Source: Actinomycetes bacterium (GTDB lineage: Bacteria; Actinomycetota; Aquicultoria; CAJVYJ01). Taken from it: a DNA stretch of 30,539 nucleotides. Positions 10,057-14,097 of this stretch are shown here, piece by piece. A program made the position numbers and the translations under genes. How positions within the stretch are numbered: the stretch's first letter is position 1; each line of letters starts with the position of its first letter. The stretch lies in the NCBI GenBank assembly GCA_030597945.1, contig JAUVQW010000001.1, positions 1-30,539 of the forward strand. The letters run 5' to 3'. Under the pieces are notes generated by a model, which saw only the letters and a program-made list of their open reading frames with translations, was not told the origin of the DNA and made no database searches.

Positions 10057-10842
10057 TCATTCTTTGCGGTTGAACATCACTACAGCTAACGAGATCATGG
10101 CGGCGCCGAAAGCGATTATTACCGCAATATTTAAGGATATCGGATTAGCGCTCACTTCCATACCCAACATCAACCCTCTAAGGGCGTCTACCCCGTAAGT
10201 CAATGGATCGAGAACGGTAAGCGCCTTTAACCACTCGGGCAGTCTTTCGATAGGGAACATGGCACCTGACAAAAGAAATAAAGGCATAACGAGGAAATTC
10301 ATTACCATCTGAAATCCTTCCATGGATTCCATCCTCGCAGCAATGACGATCCCAAAAGATGTCAGCGAAAATGAGATCAAAAACATGAGAGGGATGATGA
10401 TAACCAGTGTCTGAATCGAAAAACTTACACCTATAAAGGGTGCAAAGAGTAAAATGATCAACCCTTGAATAACTGCGACCGTACTCCCCCCCATCGCTTT
10501 TCCAATAGCAACGGACGTCCTAGAAATCGGAGCCACCATCACTTCTTTTAGAAAGCCGAATTCTCTGTCCCAGATTATCGACATAGCGGAGAAGATAGAT
10601 GTAAAAAGTAACGACATACCCAGTATCCCCGGATAGATAAAGACAACATAATTATCAACCGGCCCTAGACTGGAACCACTGCCTCCCCTGATCGCAAGCC
10701 CCCTTGATAGGCCGGTACCGAACACAAAAAGATATAATGCAGGCTGAGCCACGGAGCTCACCAACCTAAATCTATCCCTTCTATATCGTGTGAGATCTCT
10801 TAGCCAGATCGAGTAGATCGCCCGTATGTCCTTGAAACTCAT
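10057..10842 (-). CDS. ABC-2 type exporter permease (DrrB-like)
   Basis: About 6 TM segments; DREFGFLKEVMVAP, FLLSGAMFP, PLTYGVDALR motifs. ATGA overlap with the ATPase gene. Confidence 0.9.
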   Translation of the reverse strand: MSFKDIRAIYSIWLRDLTRYRRDRFRLVSSVAQPALYLFVFGTGLSRGLAIRGGSGSSLGPVDNYVVFIYPGILGMSLLFTSIFSAMSIIWDREFGFLKEVMVAPISRTSVAIGKAMGGSTVAVIQGLIILLFAPFIGVSFSIQTLVIIIPLMFLISFSLTSFGIVIAARMESMEGFQMVMNFLVMPLFLLSGAMFPIERLPEWLKALTVLDPLTYGVDALRGLMLGMEVSANPISLNIAVIIAFGAAMISLAVVMFNRKE

Positions 10843-11813
10843 CGACGCCTCAAAGCTCTAACATGTGATCTCATGCTTTTAATTGCACTTCCCTGTTCTT
10901 CCCGGATCTTTCGACCGGTCAAATGTAAAAATACATCTTCCAATGTCGGGCGATGTACAGATACCGAGACTACCGGGATCGATTGGTCGCTGATAAGCCG
11001 GGGAAGCATGCTTTCGCCATCGTCAGTCTTAATAAAAATAGTGCCATCATCAATGATTACCTGCAGTTTAAACCTTGACTCAATCTCCTTTGCCACTTTA
11101 ATGTTGTCTTTAGTCTTTAGTTTTATCGTGTCTCCCCCAATTGATTTCTTAAGCTCATCAGGCGTATCTAGAGCAATTATTTTGCCTTGGTCGATTATCG
11201 CCACCCGGTCACAATTTTCGGCTTCATCCATGTAGTGAGTGGTAAGAAAAATGGTTATCCGCTCTTTTTCTCTTAGTTCGTTAAGGTAATCCCAGATATG
11301 ATGCCTGGTTTGCGGATCTAAACCCAAGGTCGGCTCGTCTAAGAAAAGTACTTTGGGAAAGTGAAGCAGTCCCCGCCCTATCTCCAACCGACGCTTCATC
11401 CCTCCAGAGAAAGTTCTTACAATATCGTTTTGTCTTGGCGTAAGATCGATCAGATCAAGCACTTTTTTGATCCGTTCTTCTCTCTTCTCTTTTGGAATGT
11501 TATAGACAAGAGCATGAAAATTAAGATTTTCTTTCGCGCTTAGGCGCTCGTCTAAGCTCGGGTCTTGAAAGACAATGCCAATCGATGACCTGACGTCGTG
11601 TGGACTCTTTACTACATCATAACCGTTTAAGACGGCTCGTCCCGACGTTGGCTGCATTAGCGTACATAAGATGTTGATCGTCGTTGTCTTCCCGGCACCG
11701 TTTGGTCCAAGAAAACCGAAAACTTCGCCTTCATGAACTTTAAAAGAAACTCCATCGACTGCCAATATTTCATCAAAGAGTTTTCTTACATTATCCACTT
11801 CTATCATTGCCAT
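10839..11813 (-). CDS. ABC exporter ATP-binding protein (DrrA-like, with C-terminal extension)
   Basis: Walker A GPNGAGKT, signature FSGGM, Walker B LFLDEP, H-loop TTHYM, C-terminal PTLEDVFL. Start reassigned to ATG at 11813 after AGAAAGG. Confidence 0.92.
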   Translation of the reverse strand: MAMIEVDNVRKLFDEILAVDGVSFKVHEGEVFGFLGPNGAGKTTTINILCTLMQPTSGRAVLNGYDVVKSPHDVRSSIGIVFQDPSLDERLSAKENLNFHALVYNIPKEKREERIKKVLDLIDLTPRQNDIVRTFSGGMKRRLEIGRGLLHFPKVLFLDEPTLGLDPQTRHHIWDYLNELREKERITIFLTTHYMDEAENCDRVAIIDQGKIIALDTPDELKKSIGGDTIKLKTKDNIKVAKEIESRFKLQVIIDDGTIFIKTDDGESMLPRLISDQSIPVVSVSVHRPTLEDVFLHLTGRKIREEQGSAIKSMRSHVRALRRR

Positions 11814-11871
11814 TTTTATGCCTTTCTTACATCGGTATAATATAACAGACAAAGTTTAAAGAGAAAGTATT

Positions 11872-12474
11872 ATGCCTGATAAGGAAAAAAAGATCTTAAG
11901 GGATGAATATTTGATAAAAAGAGATGGTCTCAGCAGTAAGATGCGCCATCATATGAGCGCCGCCATTTTAGAAAACCTTATCCGGAGCCCTATATATAAA
12001 TCAGCAAACGACATCGGTTTCTATTGCTCTTTCGGCAGCGAAGTCGAAACATCTGAGATGATGAGTAGAGCGATAACGGATAATAAATCAATTTACCTTC
12101 CGGTAATAGACCCAAGCGATAAAAAAATGCACTTTTGCCATTTCGATGGAGATGTATGTTGTCTTACCTGCAACTCTTTTGGCATCATGGAACCTAAAAA
12201 AATGCCGGCCATAGCCGATCAGGTGCTGGATTTGATCATTGTTCCCGGTCTGGTCTTTACCAAAAACGGATGGAGAATAGGCCACGGGGCCGGCTATTAT
12301 GACCGTTATTTAAAAAAAGTTGACGCTACTACCAGCGGTGTCGCCTTTTCCACTCAGATGAGAGAATCGATCCCGAAAGGAAAATTCGACGTTCCGCTCG
12401 ATTATGTCATTACTGAAAAAGATCTATTTATAAGAAATGAACCAAAGCCCGTCTTTTCCGGATTTCAAAAATAG
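11872..12474 (+). CDS. 5-formyltetrahydrofolate cyclo-ligase
   Basis: FGSEVET, IYLPVI, FGIMEP, DLIIVPGLVF, RIGHGAGYYDRYL, DVPLDYVITE. Confidence 0.93.
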   Translation: MPDKEKKILRDEYLIKRDGLSSKMRHHMSAAILENLIRSPIYKSANDIGFYCSFGSEVETSEMMSRAITDNKSIYLPVIDPSDKKMHFCHFDGDVCCLTCNSFGIMEPKKMPAIADQVLDLIIVPGLVFTKNGWRIGHGAGYYDRYLKKVDATTSGVAFSTQMRESIPKGKFDVPLDYVITEKDLFIRNEPKPVFSGFQK

Positions 12475-12489
12475 TTATGAAAAACTGTT

Positions 12490-12536
12490 TTGACAATCTC
12501 TATGTGGATATATAATATTATAGCTATAAGTCTTAT
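12490..12536 (+). promoter_or_regulatory. arsR promoter with overlapping palindromes (candidate autoregulatory operator)
   Basis: TTGACA at 12490-12495. The -10 is TATAAT at 12511 (15-nt spacer) or TAATAT at 12513 (17-nt spacer). Palindromes ATAATATTAT (12512-12521), TTATAGCTATAA (12518-12529) and ATAAG-T-CTTAT (12526-12536). SD GAGGTGA. Confidence 0.65.
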
Positions 12537-12550
12537 TGAGGTGATAATAT

Positions 12551-12838
12551 ATGCCAGGTTCGGAAGATTTCTTCCACGCGATGTCTGATAATACTAGACA
12601 AGAGATATTGGTCTTGTTGGATAAGAAGCCTAGATGTGTAAGAGATATAGCAAAAAAATTTTGTATCTCCCAGCCATCGATATCTAGACATCTGTCAGTA
12701 CTTAAAAATGCCGGCCTGGTAAGTGATGAGAGAAACGGCCAAAAGATTATTTATTCTCTAAATCAAGATTGGTTGCGCAGCTGTTGCGAGAATAACTTTG
12801 CCAGGTTTAGCTGTTGCAAAAGTCTTTTTAAATCTTAG
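12551..12838 (+). CDS. ArsR/SmtB family metalloregulator with C-terminal Cys pairs
   Basis: FHAMSDNTRQEIL, wHTH CVRDIA...SQPSISRHLSVLKNAGLV, ERNGQKIIYSL; C-terminus SCCENNFARFSCC. Confidence 0.92.
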   Translation: MPGSEDFFHAMSDNTRQEILVLLDKKPRCVRDIAKKFCISQPSISRHLSVLKNAGLVSDERNGQKIIYSLNQDWLRSCCENNFARFSCCKSLFKS

Positions 12839-12859
12839 ATTACTAAGGAGGTGACGTGG

Positions 12860-12922
12860 ATGAAAAGATATATGGTACCTCGAATAGCCCATTGTGAGTC
12901 TGGTTGCACTAGACCGTCCTGA
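12860..12922 (+). CDS. Unannotated 20-aa Cys-containing peptide MKRYMVPRIAHCESGCTRPS
   Basis: Near-perfect SD AAGGAGGTGA (12845-12854), 21 nt after the arsR stop, ATG at 12860, TGA at 12920-12922, terminator downstream. Below the ORF-track length cutoff. Confidence 0.6.
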   Translation: MKRYMVPRIAHCESGCTRPS

Positions 12923-12958
12923 GCACGACGCGAAACTACTCATCAGGTTAAAAAGTTA

Positions 12959-12992
12959 AGGCCCCCGAAATTGGAGGGTCTTTTCTTTTTTT
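12959..12992 (+). terminator. Intrinsic terminator of the arsR-peptide transcript
   Basis: Stem AGGCCC-CC / GG-(A)-GGGTCT with loop GAAATT, followed by TTTCTTTTTTT; lies between convergent genes. Confidence 0.8.
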
Positions 12993-14097
12993 ATCTGTAT
13001 TTATAGAGTTGATCGAGGGTAACAATGGAGTAGCCTGCTGATCTTAGATGCTCTATGATCTTGGGTAGAGCCGCTACCGTTACCTGTCTATTGCCTCCAC
13101 CATCATGAAGTAAAACGATTGCCCCCGGTCTTACTTGCAACATCATCGTCTGAATGATGCTATCTACTGACTCCGCCTGCCAATCCATAGGATCAACCGA
13201 CCACAGCGCAATCGAGTAACCTCGTCTGGTCACCGCTTCTCCTAGCAGGCCGTTTAGGCGACCGAAGGGGGGGCGAAACCATCTGGGTGATTCCCCAGTT
13301 TTTGCGAGAATAAGATCATGGCTCACTTGAATCTCGTTTTCCACGACCGCCTGATCCTTATCATCGAGACGACTGTGAGTGAGCGAGTGGTTCTCAATAT
13401 CAAAGCCTTGGTCCTTCATATATTTTATAGTGGCAGGATATTTTTGGACCTGCGTCCCTACGACAAAAAAAGTTGCCGGCACATCGTAGGATTTTAGAAT
13501 ATCAACTATTTGTTTTGTATATGGGAGCAAAGGGCCATCATCAAAAGTAAGCGCCACCATTCTTTTGGGATTAATTTTTCCTCTCTTTAATATTGTCGGT
13601 TTCGGCTTACTAACTATCTCTTTCTTTACAATAAGGCCGCTATCTTCTAGGTAATACTCTCTTATTTCGCCAGGCGATCCAGGTCTTTTAACAACTACAA
13701 ATGGACCGCTGCCTTCGATGATCGTCCGCGGTGTAATCTCCAGGGTTCTTTCTTTAATCACTTCCCGTAAATTTCTTCCTTGGACCATCTCAATCCTAGA
13801 CCCGCGGCTTATCAATGAGGATTCCTTGACCCGTGAGCCATCTAGGTAAATCGTTGGCTCTTCTCCCAAACCGTTTAATACGATCTCTCCGTCATGGCTG
13901 AGAAGATTGCCGGTCTCTGGTTTAAAACCTACTTTTCTTAGTGCGTCGCCTACTGTCTTCTCTTTAGTTATATAGTTTTCATTGTTTATCTTGATCGGTA
14001 TCTTTGCGTAGGCAGAATAAAAAAAGACCTCGATCCCGATAAGGGTGATCACGGCCACCAACAGACGGATAATCATCTTTTTTTTACTAATAATCAT
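12991..14097 (-). CDS. Membrane-anchored polysaccharide deacetylase (NodB/CE4) with putative ubiquitin-like/G5-type stalk
   Basis: N-terminal TM; ALTFDDGP, ENHSLTH, FRPPFG, LWSVDPMDW, IVLLHDG. The stalk region (KTVGDAL...PGSPGEI...KKEIVSKP) resembles DUF348/G5 modules (inference). Confidence 0.88.
   Translation of the reverse strand: MIISKKKMIIRLLVAVITLIGIEVFFYSAYAKIPIKINNENYITKEKTVGDALRKVGFKPETGNLLSHDGEIVLNGLGEEPTIYLDGSRVKESSLISRGSRIEMVQGRNLREVIKERTLEITPRTIIEGSGPFVVVKRPGSPGEIREYYLEDSGLIVKKEIVSKPKPTILKRGKINPKRMVALTFDDGPLLPYTKQIVDILKSYDVPATFFVVGTQVQKYPATIKYMKDQGFDIENHSLTHSRLDDKDQAVVENEIQVSHDLILAKTGESPRWFRPPFGRLNGLLGEAVTRRGYSIALWSVDPMDWQAESVDSIIQTMMLQVRPGAIVLLHDGGGNRQVTVAALPKIIEHLRSAGYSIVTLDQLYKYR

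Follow-up and report, generated by a model that had tools for sequence, protein, structure and literature searches.

A conserved His/Cys micropeptide gene behind a cysteine-rich arsR gene, coupled in register to a covarying RNA element and recurring across bacterial phyla

The stretch of DNA analysed here, hereafter the window, comprises 30,539 nucleotides (nt) of contig JAUVQW010000001.1 (forward strand, positions 1 to 30,539) in the 1.22 Mb, 82% complete genome assembly of an Actinomycetes bacterium (GCA_030597945.1; Actinomycetota, Aquicultoria), and holds a short operon in which a gene for an ArsR/SmtB-family regulator is followed by a very small open reading frame (ORF) and, overlapping the end of the latter, by a conserved RNA element (Table 1). 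The upstream gene matches PF01022 (winged helix-turn-helix of the HTH_5 type) with an E-value of 2.8e-16 and 59.6 bits against a cut-off of 22. The initial annotation, made from the letters alone, had proposed the small ORF as the gene of a 20-residue peptide with the best Shine-Dalgarno (SD) sequence of the region, and both frame and ranking are borne out: AAGGAGGTGA is followed after 5 bases (8 nt past its GGAGG) by an ATG at 12860, the frame closes with a TGA at 12920-12922, and the product, MKRYMVPRIAHCESGCTRPS, is encoded by 20 codons beginning 21 nt downstream of the arsR stop. The 10-nt match of this SD to the anti-SD sequence is the longest among the 29 ORFs of the window, the runners-up reaching 8 and 7 nt. 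The program-made ORF list carries the small ORF as a 23-residue, GTG-started version from 12851. No terminator is present in the interval between arsR and the small ORF.

An ORF of 20 codons is in itself weak evidence for a gene, because 59 ORFs of at least 20 amino acids overlap the same 4.5 kb examined. Approximately 20 orthologues of the regulator were found among 60 relatives (49-58% identity, with the C-terminal CC...CC in common), and a homologous small ORF lies directly 3' of arsR in 21 of 21 such Cys-rich ArsR loci, the window included, at a distance of 0-60 nt and each time with a GGAGG-type SD and an ATG, GTG or TTG start. The coding tests were performed on 27 units gathered without the use of a codon pattern, either as ArsR-linked loci or as matches to a peptide profile. 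Over their first 16 codons, the mean column entropy is 0.68, 0.70 and 1.44 bits at codon positions 1, 2 and 3, respectively; four-fold degenerate sites are near saturation, the first two positions are fixed in the codons for His, Cys and Gly, and Arg codons alternate between CGN and AGR among the homologues. By the Nei-Gojobori method the in-frame proportions of synonymous (pS) and nonsynonymous (pN) differences in this core are 0.81 (saturated) and 0.28, a ratio of 0.34, compared to 1.32 and 0.93 for the same bases in the other two frames and 1.15 for the nine in-frame codons past the core. The recurrence of the small ORF behind arsR homologues and the frame dependence of its conservation both agree with the initial annotation.

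The drop in conservation beyond codon 16 indicates that the conserved product is the first 16 residues and that the terminal TRPS is not conserved as protein. Of the 20-residue peptide originally proposed, the first 16 residues therefore stand, while the tail is made up of a spacer of fixed length and variable sequence (9 nt, 12908-12916) and of UCC and UGA, both of which already belong to the RNA element. The core follows the formula M-K-R-[FY]-M-[VIL]-P-R-[VIT]-A-H-C-x-[ED]-G-[C/H], in which His11, Cys12 and Gly15 are invariant in all 105 distinct units examined and Cys is the commonest residue 16; for 98 of 107 units the peptide length is 16, 18, 20, 22 or 24 amino acids. We conclude that the ORF at 12860-12922 is a genuine micropeptide gene, with a 16-residue core under purifying selection at the protein level. 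Three other readings of the same bases were tried and rejected. An antisense ORF of 61 amino acids (12758-12943) fails as the periodicity matches the plus-strand frame, sequestration of the SD by codons 7-8 fails as the Pro wobble position is unconstrained, and selenocysteine read-through of the UGA fails as homologues have CGA, CAG, CUG or UAA there, with no conserved frame beyond.

Past codon 16, most units have a spacer of exactly 9 nt (three codons), free in sequence, and then a conserved 27-nt element. Its consensus, G-U-C-C-[YGRGCA]-N-G-A-C-NNN-AAAC-[UGCYCR], contains two helices: S1, which in the window pairs 12916-12918 with 12927-12929 (GUC:GAC), and S2 (the bracketed segments), which pairs 12920-12925 with 12937-12942 (UGAGCA:UACUCA, with one C.A mismatch) and whose first three bases are the UGA stop codon. 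The loop of S1 serves as the 5' strand of S2, which gives the element the topology of an H-type pseudoknot; its third loop is 7 nt long and carries three invariant A (GCGAAAC at 12930-12936 in the window). S2 covaries, one column pair occurring as GC 52, AU 25 and GU 4 times and another as UA 19, CG 18 and UG 15 times. S1 is nearly invariant, but its rare changes are compensated in independent genomes: three sequences (loci L115, CUCC:GGAG; L118, GACC:GGUC; L140, GCCC:GGGC) have both partners exchanged, at two of the four positions of the helix, and in locus L120 (GUUU:AGAC) wobble pairs preserve the helix. None of 500 column shuffles reached the observed covariation, slid registers score far lower, and RNAalifold independently recovers the S2 core. 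The pseudoknot is a topology derived from sequence covariation, which does not distinguish helices formed simultaneously from helices formed in alternation. A DNA operator palindrome was considered and rejected, because G.U pairs are confined to the sense strand, which identifies the feature as RNA.

The element is found almost only behind the small ORF. A covariance model of the element, R1, scores 33.7 bits on the window copy (E 2.9e-7); across 61 related genomes its matches lie almost only directly 3' of a small ORF, apart from two at contig edges, and in 592 kb of fetched loci every match sits behind a small ORF. Tandem second copies of the pseudoknot are found in one Actinomycetota family and in Anaerolineales. 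A repeated extragenic element was also rejected as an explanation, the source genome having only two copies, both after a small ORF, and the 592 kb of flanks none extra. The sole pseudoknot-like copy without a small ORF upstream, in locus L190 (1492-1527, equal to G037:C26:19391-19426; GACC UGAGCA UGUC ... AAAC UGCUCA), lies 30 nt before the SD of a gene within a run of small unknown genes.

The site at which the ORF stops varies among the units: directly after codon 16, at a UAG before GUCC, at the UGA of UCC-UGA or of GCA-UGA-C, or at a UAA in the loop. The stop codon is always in or just before the RNA element and in the same frame relative to it, which implies that every terminating ribosome must open the structure. 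The peptide without the pseudoknot is found in some Patescibacteria, in the Solincola group and at three ArsR-linked loci; in place of the pseudoknot such units usually have a terminator or a different stable hairpin. At loci L014, L020 and L039 a conserved long hairpin (AAAGCGTTGGTT ... AACCAACGCTTT) lies approximately 90-150 nt past the small ORF, with no clear U-tract; the gene that follows it starts MKKGL...NSF..KS.AVDNQW and is, judged from its sequence, putatively lemA-like. The in-register pseudoknot is half of the module, and it was missing from the initial annotation.

Table 1. Features of the arsR-micropeptide operon and its surroundings, with one Desulfobacterales neighbour gene. 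Positions are those of the window unless a locus is named.
Feature	Position	Strand	Evidence or remark
ABC-2 type exporter pair (ATPase and permease), operon flank	10057-11852	-	
5-formyltetrahydrofolate cyclo-ligase gene, operon flank	11872-12474		
Putative sigma-70-like promoter of the arsR-small ORF operon (TTGACA, 17 nt, TAATAT)	12490-12518	+	10/12 consensus matches
arsR, ArsR/SmtB-family winged-helix regulator, 95 amino acids, C-terminal CC-x9-CC	12551-12838	+	PF01022
SD of the small ORF, AAGGAGGTGA	12845-12854	+	starts after a 6-nt gap behind arsR
Conserved 16-codon micropeptide core (MKRYMVPRIAHCESGC)	12860-12907	+	wobble variation; pN/pS 0.34 in frame
Non-conserved tail TRPS and stop	12908-12922	+	no 3-nt periodicity; pN/pS 1.15
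27-nt RNA element, H-type pseudoknot topology	12916-12942	+	covariation; covariance model R1
Bidirectional intrinsic terminator, shared with the convergent polysaccharide deacetylase gene	~12958-12995	.	hairpin and U-run
Polysaccharide deacetylase gene, convergent	12991-14097	-	PF01522
Gene of the 79-83-residue Cys-rich protein of Desulfobacterales	L080 4557-4796; L102 3842-4081; L139 7367-7618 (minus)		

AT-rich inverted repeats flank the operon promoter, one pair being 12508-12516 and 12544-12552. On the plus strand the terminator consists of a stable hairpin with a U-run behind it, and the minus strand likewise shows a terminator-like site. The N-terminal sequences of the flanking ORFs suggest that the order cyclo-ligase, arsR, small ORF and deacetylase is retained in several relatives.

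The module is not confined to this operon. The source genome has a second copy, MKRFIIPRVAHCESGCRPKS with its pseudoknot (stem UAAACAG/CUGUUUA), on contig C121 (locus L192, 726-815), where a TlpA/AhpC-like redoxin gene (149-685) lies upstream and a terminator followed by queD-queE-queC-queF downstream. A search with the core profile gave further copies in the class, several of them of the form ...AHC[DG]EGH... and situated directly 3' of P-type ATPase genes. The codon pattern K-R-[FY]-M-x-x-R-x-A-H-C-x-x-G-[YRY], carries approximately 42 bits, so that 596 Gb should contain less than one chance match; matches were obtained in at least 120 stretches or genomes. The 80 records listed among these are labelled as Actinomycetota (Ca. 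Solincola, Geothermincolia, Acidimicrobiia), many as Desulfobacterota or 'Deltaproteobacteria', and as Anaerolineales (Chloroflexota), Saccharibacteria, Parcubacteria and Andersenbacteria (Patescibacteria), Zixibacteria, Ignavibacteria, Spirochaetota, Aminicenantes and Pseudomonadota. The micropeptide family is present in at least nine bacterial phyla. All 80 fetched loci have an SD and a start codon, the latter nearly always directly before KRF, and encode MKRFMVPRVAHCSEGC with minor variation; the SD is of the GGAGG type in nearly all homologues; a divergent second subfamily reads M[RK]Y[RQ]N[IF]xExR[HR]C[ED]EGC. A tblastn search against 72,556 plasmids returned a single match at chance level, and the family was therefore not seen on sequenced plasmids. 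Peptides of 16-24 amino acids fall under the usual length limit of gene callers.

The initial annotation recognised no described family in the peptide, and the searches agree. The peptide gave no match in Pfam (E up to 10), NCBIfam or the PDB sequences, exact look-up of eight family members in a collection of 15 billion proteins found none of them, and six peptide strings of the family are absent from the searchable papers, where keyword searches likewise brought nothing relevant. For the RNA, an Rfam scan of the window gave three chance-level matches only (E 3-9), and a scan of a consensus-like copy (L137) gave none at E up to 10, preQ1-I, guanidine-III and NiCo included. No described protein or RNA family is matched in the libraries and texts searched. 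The ArsR-like regulator of hgcAB has its Cys residues at other positions, and a small ORF is not mentioned for it.

The genomic context was surveyed in 80 loci picked by the peptide pattern alone. The small ORF is free-standing, with heterogeneous genes on both sides and the next gene on the opposite strand in 31 of the 80; an ArsR homologue lies within 400 nt in five of them, and six loci labelled 'Deltaproteobacteria' or Pseudomonadota have a TTGACA-containing promoter-like sequence of their own. Taken together, this indicates that the micropeptide is not an ArsR-specific accessory. The earlier description of it as the sole partner of ArsR thus holds for the operon in the window and for its lineage, where it is the only other operon gene, but not for the family, most members of which lie away from arsR. 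Neighbours are enriched in metal- and thiol-related functions: ArsR, CopA-type ATPases, YHS and HMA domains, CnrX-like Metal_resist proteins with PDZ, redoxins, NifU, an Fe-S domain, a DksA-type zinc finger and a glutaredoxin-like protein, together with unclassified Cys-rich proteins of approximately 80 and 140 amino acids. In approximately 24 of the 80 loci a gene for a Cys-rich ArsR, a CopA-type ATPase, a YHS, a TlpA-like or a CnrX-like protein is close by. The neighbouring ATPases bear CPC and MxxSS, the Cu(I) signature of P1B-ATPases. Residue 16 follows this context, with 9 of 11 units of the His16 type lying in CopA/YHS loci compared to 5 of 94 of the other variants (Fisher p 3e-8, a value inflated by related genomes). 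ArsR homologues with Cys-rich tails also precede the small ORF in Ignavibacteria and Zixibacteria.

Several further observations concern the neighbours themselves. The window ArsR and its counterparts in L003-L022 have a common C-terminal CC-x8/9-CC-x-x-[LF]F, with 5 to 35 residues beyond the motif, and one genus group of orthologues is without the first CC pair and has still kept the small ORF. In Zixibacteria and Ignavibacteria (L077, ~2600-2800, and L104, ~2700-2900) a Cys-rich ORF of approximately 57 amino acids (...WFSCCCMP...SECCP...) is inserted between the arsR with the Cys-rich tail and the small ORF; upstream of it lies an AT-rich promoter region that contains the inverted repeat CATATA-AC-TATATG. 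In Solincola/Geothermincola a protein of approximately 140 amino acids with no Pfam match is encoded directly upstream (L068 3949-4581; L075 5812-6264, minus; L118 7209-7640), with the conserved Cys motifs GC-x-IC-H-G-N-E ... LCP ... GEC-E-I-C-Y. In Desulfobacterales a conserved Cys-rich protein of 79-83 amino acids (...CPYY...CLDH...W-x-C-x2-C...), also with no Pfam match, lies upstream (Table 1) and a universal stress protein (Usp) gene downstream. In several 'Deltaproteobacteria' (L071, L126, L134, L127, L135) the small ORF stands behind a GGR-like flavin adenine dinucleotide (FAD) oxidoreductase gene; in L071, L126 and L134 the next ORF matches only the C-terminal half of selenoprotein B (GRDB), and in L127, L135, L069 and L086 a hemerythrin-like gene is found within approximately 400 nt.

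The explanation we favour, held tentatively and at somewhat less than an even chance, is that the gene encodes a thiophilic-metal-binding micropeptide, which in the window is the only cargo of the ArsR operon, with the RNA tuning translation termination or mRNA stability; the function is deduced from conservation and context. His11, Cys12 and Cys16, possibly together with Met5, would ligate a thiophilic metal or metalloid, and the peptide would serve as a small cytoplasmic buffer, as a hand-over peptide or as a partner of metal-handling proteins. Family-wide, Cu(I) is the best-supported ligand predicted, while for the Cys16 type beside the ArsR of the window Zn, Cd, As(III) and Ni are candidates that are inseparable from one another. 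The arsR and peptide genes would be co-transcribed from the promoter to the bidirectional terminator, and the operon would be autoregulated, the Cys-rich ArsR leaving its operator upon effector binding. The pseudoknot, unwound by each ribosome finishing the ORF, would most likely tune termination or pausing at the ORF end, or the stability of a very short mRNA.

The logic of such an operon may be that of SmtB and SmtA in miniature. As in SmtB-SmtA and BxmR-BmtA, a sensor of the ArsR/SmtB type is genetically coupled to a small product bearing Cys and His, with no enzyme or transporter in the operon. SmtA differs in having approximately 55 amino acids, many Cys residues, a zinc-cluster fold and divergent transcription, whereas the micropeptide has a core of 16 residues with two Cys and one His, is encoded behind arsR in the same transcriptional direction, and is mostly found without an ArsR; it has no sequence relation to SmtA-type metallothioneins, as no Pfam family is matched at E up to 10. 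The His16 variant can in turn be compared to CopZ and other HMA-domain copper chaperones, since it occupies the position usual for a small copper chaperone, directly after CopA-type pumps (CPC, MxxSS) or by a YHS gene. Unlike CopZ, which has approximately 70 amino acids, a ferredoxin-like fold and MxCxxC, the micropeptide has only 16-24 amino acids and H-C-x-x-G-[C/H], and it matches no HMA profile.

A number of points weigh against this explanation. Two Cys and one His are a thin ligand set, for which dimers or a partner may be needed; one subgroup (AHCCEGK) is without Cys16, and in a single copy His11 is replaced by Arg. The 10 N-terminal residues are as conserved as the ligand residues, which a simple chelator does not explain, and a metal buffer gives no role to the pseudoknot; indeed, no simple model accounts for why residues 1-10 are so strongly conserved or for what the pseudoknot does. 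Approximately 70% of the 80 pattern-picked loci have no metal gene nearby, the context statistics include related and hence non-independent genomes, and some recurrent neighbours (Usp, hemerythrin, GGR-like FAD oxidoreductases, GrdB-like proteins) are as compatible with redox stress as with metal stress.

A different account, unlikely but worth serious consideration, places the function in the mRNA. The module would be a cis-acting, translation-coupled RNA device in which nascent peptide and pseudoknot jointly cause ribosome pausing or arrest, perhaps triggered by a metal, a thiol or some other ligand, so that mRNA fate or downstream expression is controlled and the free peptide has no task. 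The exact three-codon spacing between core and pseudoknot in all units, with a spacer free in sequence, argues for such a device, as do the confinement of the stop to the RNA element or the bases just before it, the other stable hairpin at the same place in pseudoknot-less lineages, and the tandem duplication of the RNA in two unrelated lineages. Conservation of the whole 16-mer recalls arrest peptides, and at some loci the ribosome-binding site of the next gene follows within 9-30 nt. The module also resembles amino-acid attenuators and the leader or arrest peptides TnaC, SpeFL and SecM in that a very short, efficiently initiated ORF ends where the terminating ribosome meets a conserved RNA structure at a fixed distance. 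Those elements, however, are placed 5' of the genes they control, while here the downstream genes are heterogeneous, none is conserved, the next gene is on the opposite strand in 31 of the 80 loci, and a terminator or a convergent gene is often next, both being present in the window. Attenuator and leader peptides are unconstrained in sequence outside their regulatory codons, whereas this peptide is under purifying selection; several lineages retain it without the pseudoknot and with the stop directly after codon 16, and residue 16 co-varies with the class of neighbouring gene, as would be the case for a peptide meeting partners. As to the RNA itself, the preQ1-I riboswitch and the luteovirus frameshift pseudoknots offer the closest likeness, namely a short helix, a 3' strand pairing with its loop, a length of approximately 27 nt and an A-rich joining loop of 7 nt. 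The present element differs in lying at the 3' end of an ORF instead of in a 5' untranslated region, and in having neither a slippery site nor an extended frame nor an Rfam match.

Less probable, and in our judgement quite unlikely, is a micropeptide of thiol-redox or oxidative-stress function, in which C-x3-C would act as a dithiol/disulfide relay or as the sensor partner of thioredoxin-fold or flavin disulfide-reductase-like proteins. The neighbours include a TlpA/AhpC-like redoxin (in the source genome itself), a glutaredoxin-like protein, FAD/pyridine-nucleotide oxidoreductases, GrdB-like proteins, hemerythrin and Usp, and most carriers bear the labels of lineages usually considered anaerobic. 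Metal ligation better explains the invariant His next to Cys12 and the fact that Cys16 gives way to His specifically in loci with copper pumps, and the AHCCEGK and ...GH variants are without the C-x3-C pair. An ArsR-specific co-sensor or anti-repressor, a peptide binding the CC...CC tail of ArsR with or without a metalloid and modulating its binding to DNA, is very unlikely. The complete linkage in this lineage (21/21) and the recurrence of a Cys-rich-tail ArsR followed by the small ORF in two other phyla are consistent with it, but most family members have no ArsR nearby, the second copy in the same genome lies away from any ArsR, and the small ORF persists beside some ArsR orthologues that no longer have the first CC pair.

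It also seems highly improbable that the peptide is the precursor of a processed or modified product, either one resembling a ribosomally synthesized and post-translationally modified peptide (RiPP) or one from which a leader is cleaved after Ala10, exposing an N-terminal H-C-x-x-G-C 'hook'. The idea draws on a conserved N-terminal part of 10 residues ending in a nearly invariant Ala and followed by H-C-x-x-G-C, and on three lineages in which the ORF ends right after this hexapeptide. The arrangement recalls the Ni-hook of nickel superoxide dismutase, H-C-x-x-P-C-G-x-Y exposed by leader cleavage and accompanied by a Sod_Ni domain and a SodX-type peptidase, with the same H-C-x-x-[G/P]-C spacing and a short N-terminal segment ending in Ala. 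This spacing is all that the two have in common: the micropeptide has no Pro5, no Tyr9, no four-helix body and no Sod_Ni or other Pfam match, and its cleavage is hypothetical. An Arg at position -3, furthermore, makes a poor site for type I signal peptidase. In the scan, which covered the immediate neighbours, the 25 commonest families on each side include no radical-SAM, YcaO, lanthipeptide or peptidase family. Both the leader-peptide and the RiPP options of the initial annotation are therefore disfavoured, the one by the lack of a conserved downstream gene and the other by the lack of a maturase family among these neighbours. A chance ORF in a non-coding 3' region, with conservation purely at the RNA or DNA level, would agree with short ORFs being commonplace and with the conserved RNA overlapping the 3' end, but is effectively excluded by the three-base periodicity, the saturated synonymous sites beside conserved residues, the conserved SD and start, and the retention of the peptide where the RNA is lost.

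A bolder reading, which we regard as speculative and improbable but not negligibly so, unites the two halves: small ORF and in-register pseudoknot would form one undescribed, cross-phylum sensing module, in which a 27-nt ligand- or peptide-responsive pseudoknot reads the ribosome that is finishing a His/Cys 16-mer. The metal-loaded basic peptide could, for example, attach to the RNA of its own unit; alternatively, the release of a natural minimal 'metal-hook' peptide could be under the control of the RNA. Being a 16-mer peptide and a 27-mer RNA, both partners are small enough for synthesis and direct testing.

The coding core, held in fixed coupling with a covarying pseudoknot, offers a clean new case for studying RNA structure in relation to translation termination. 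If the metal-binding explanation holds, a small-protein gene below the length limit of every gene caller extends from Patescibacteria to Actinomycetota and Desulfobacterota and is absent from all annotation. It would then be a new component of bacterial copper, metal or thiol homeostasis, and would assign a role to those 'orphan' Cys-rich ArsR regulators for which no target is evident. The sensing module, if true, would establish translation-coupled sensors of metals or thiols as a new class, present alike in Patescibacteria (the candidate phyla radiation), Actinomycetota and Desulfobacterota.

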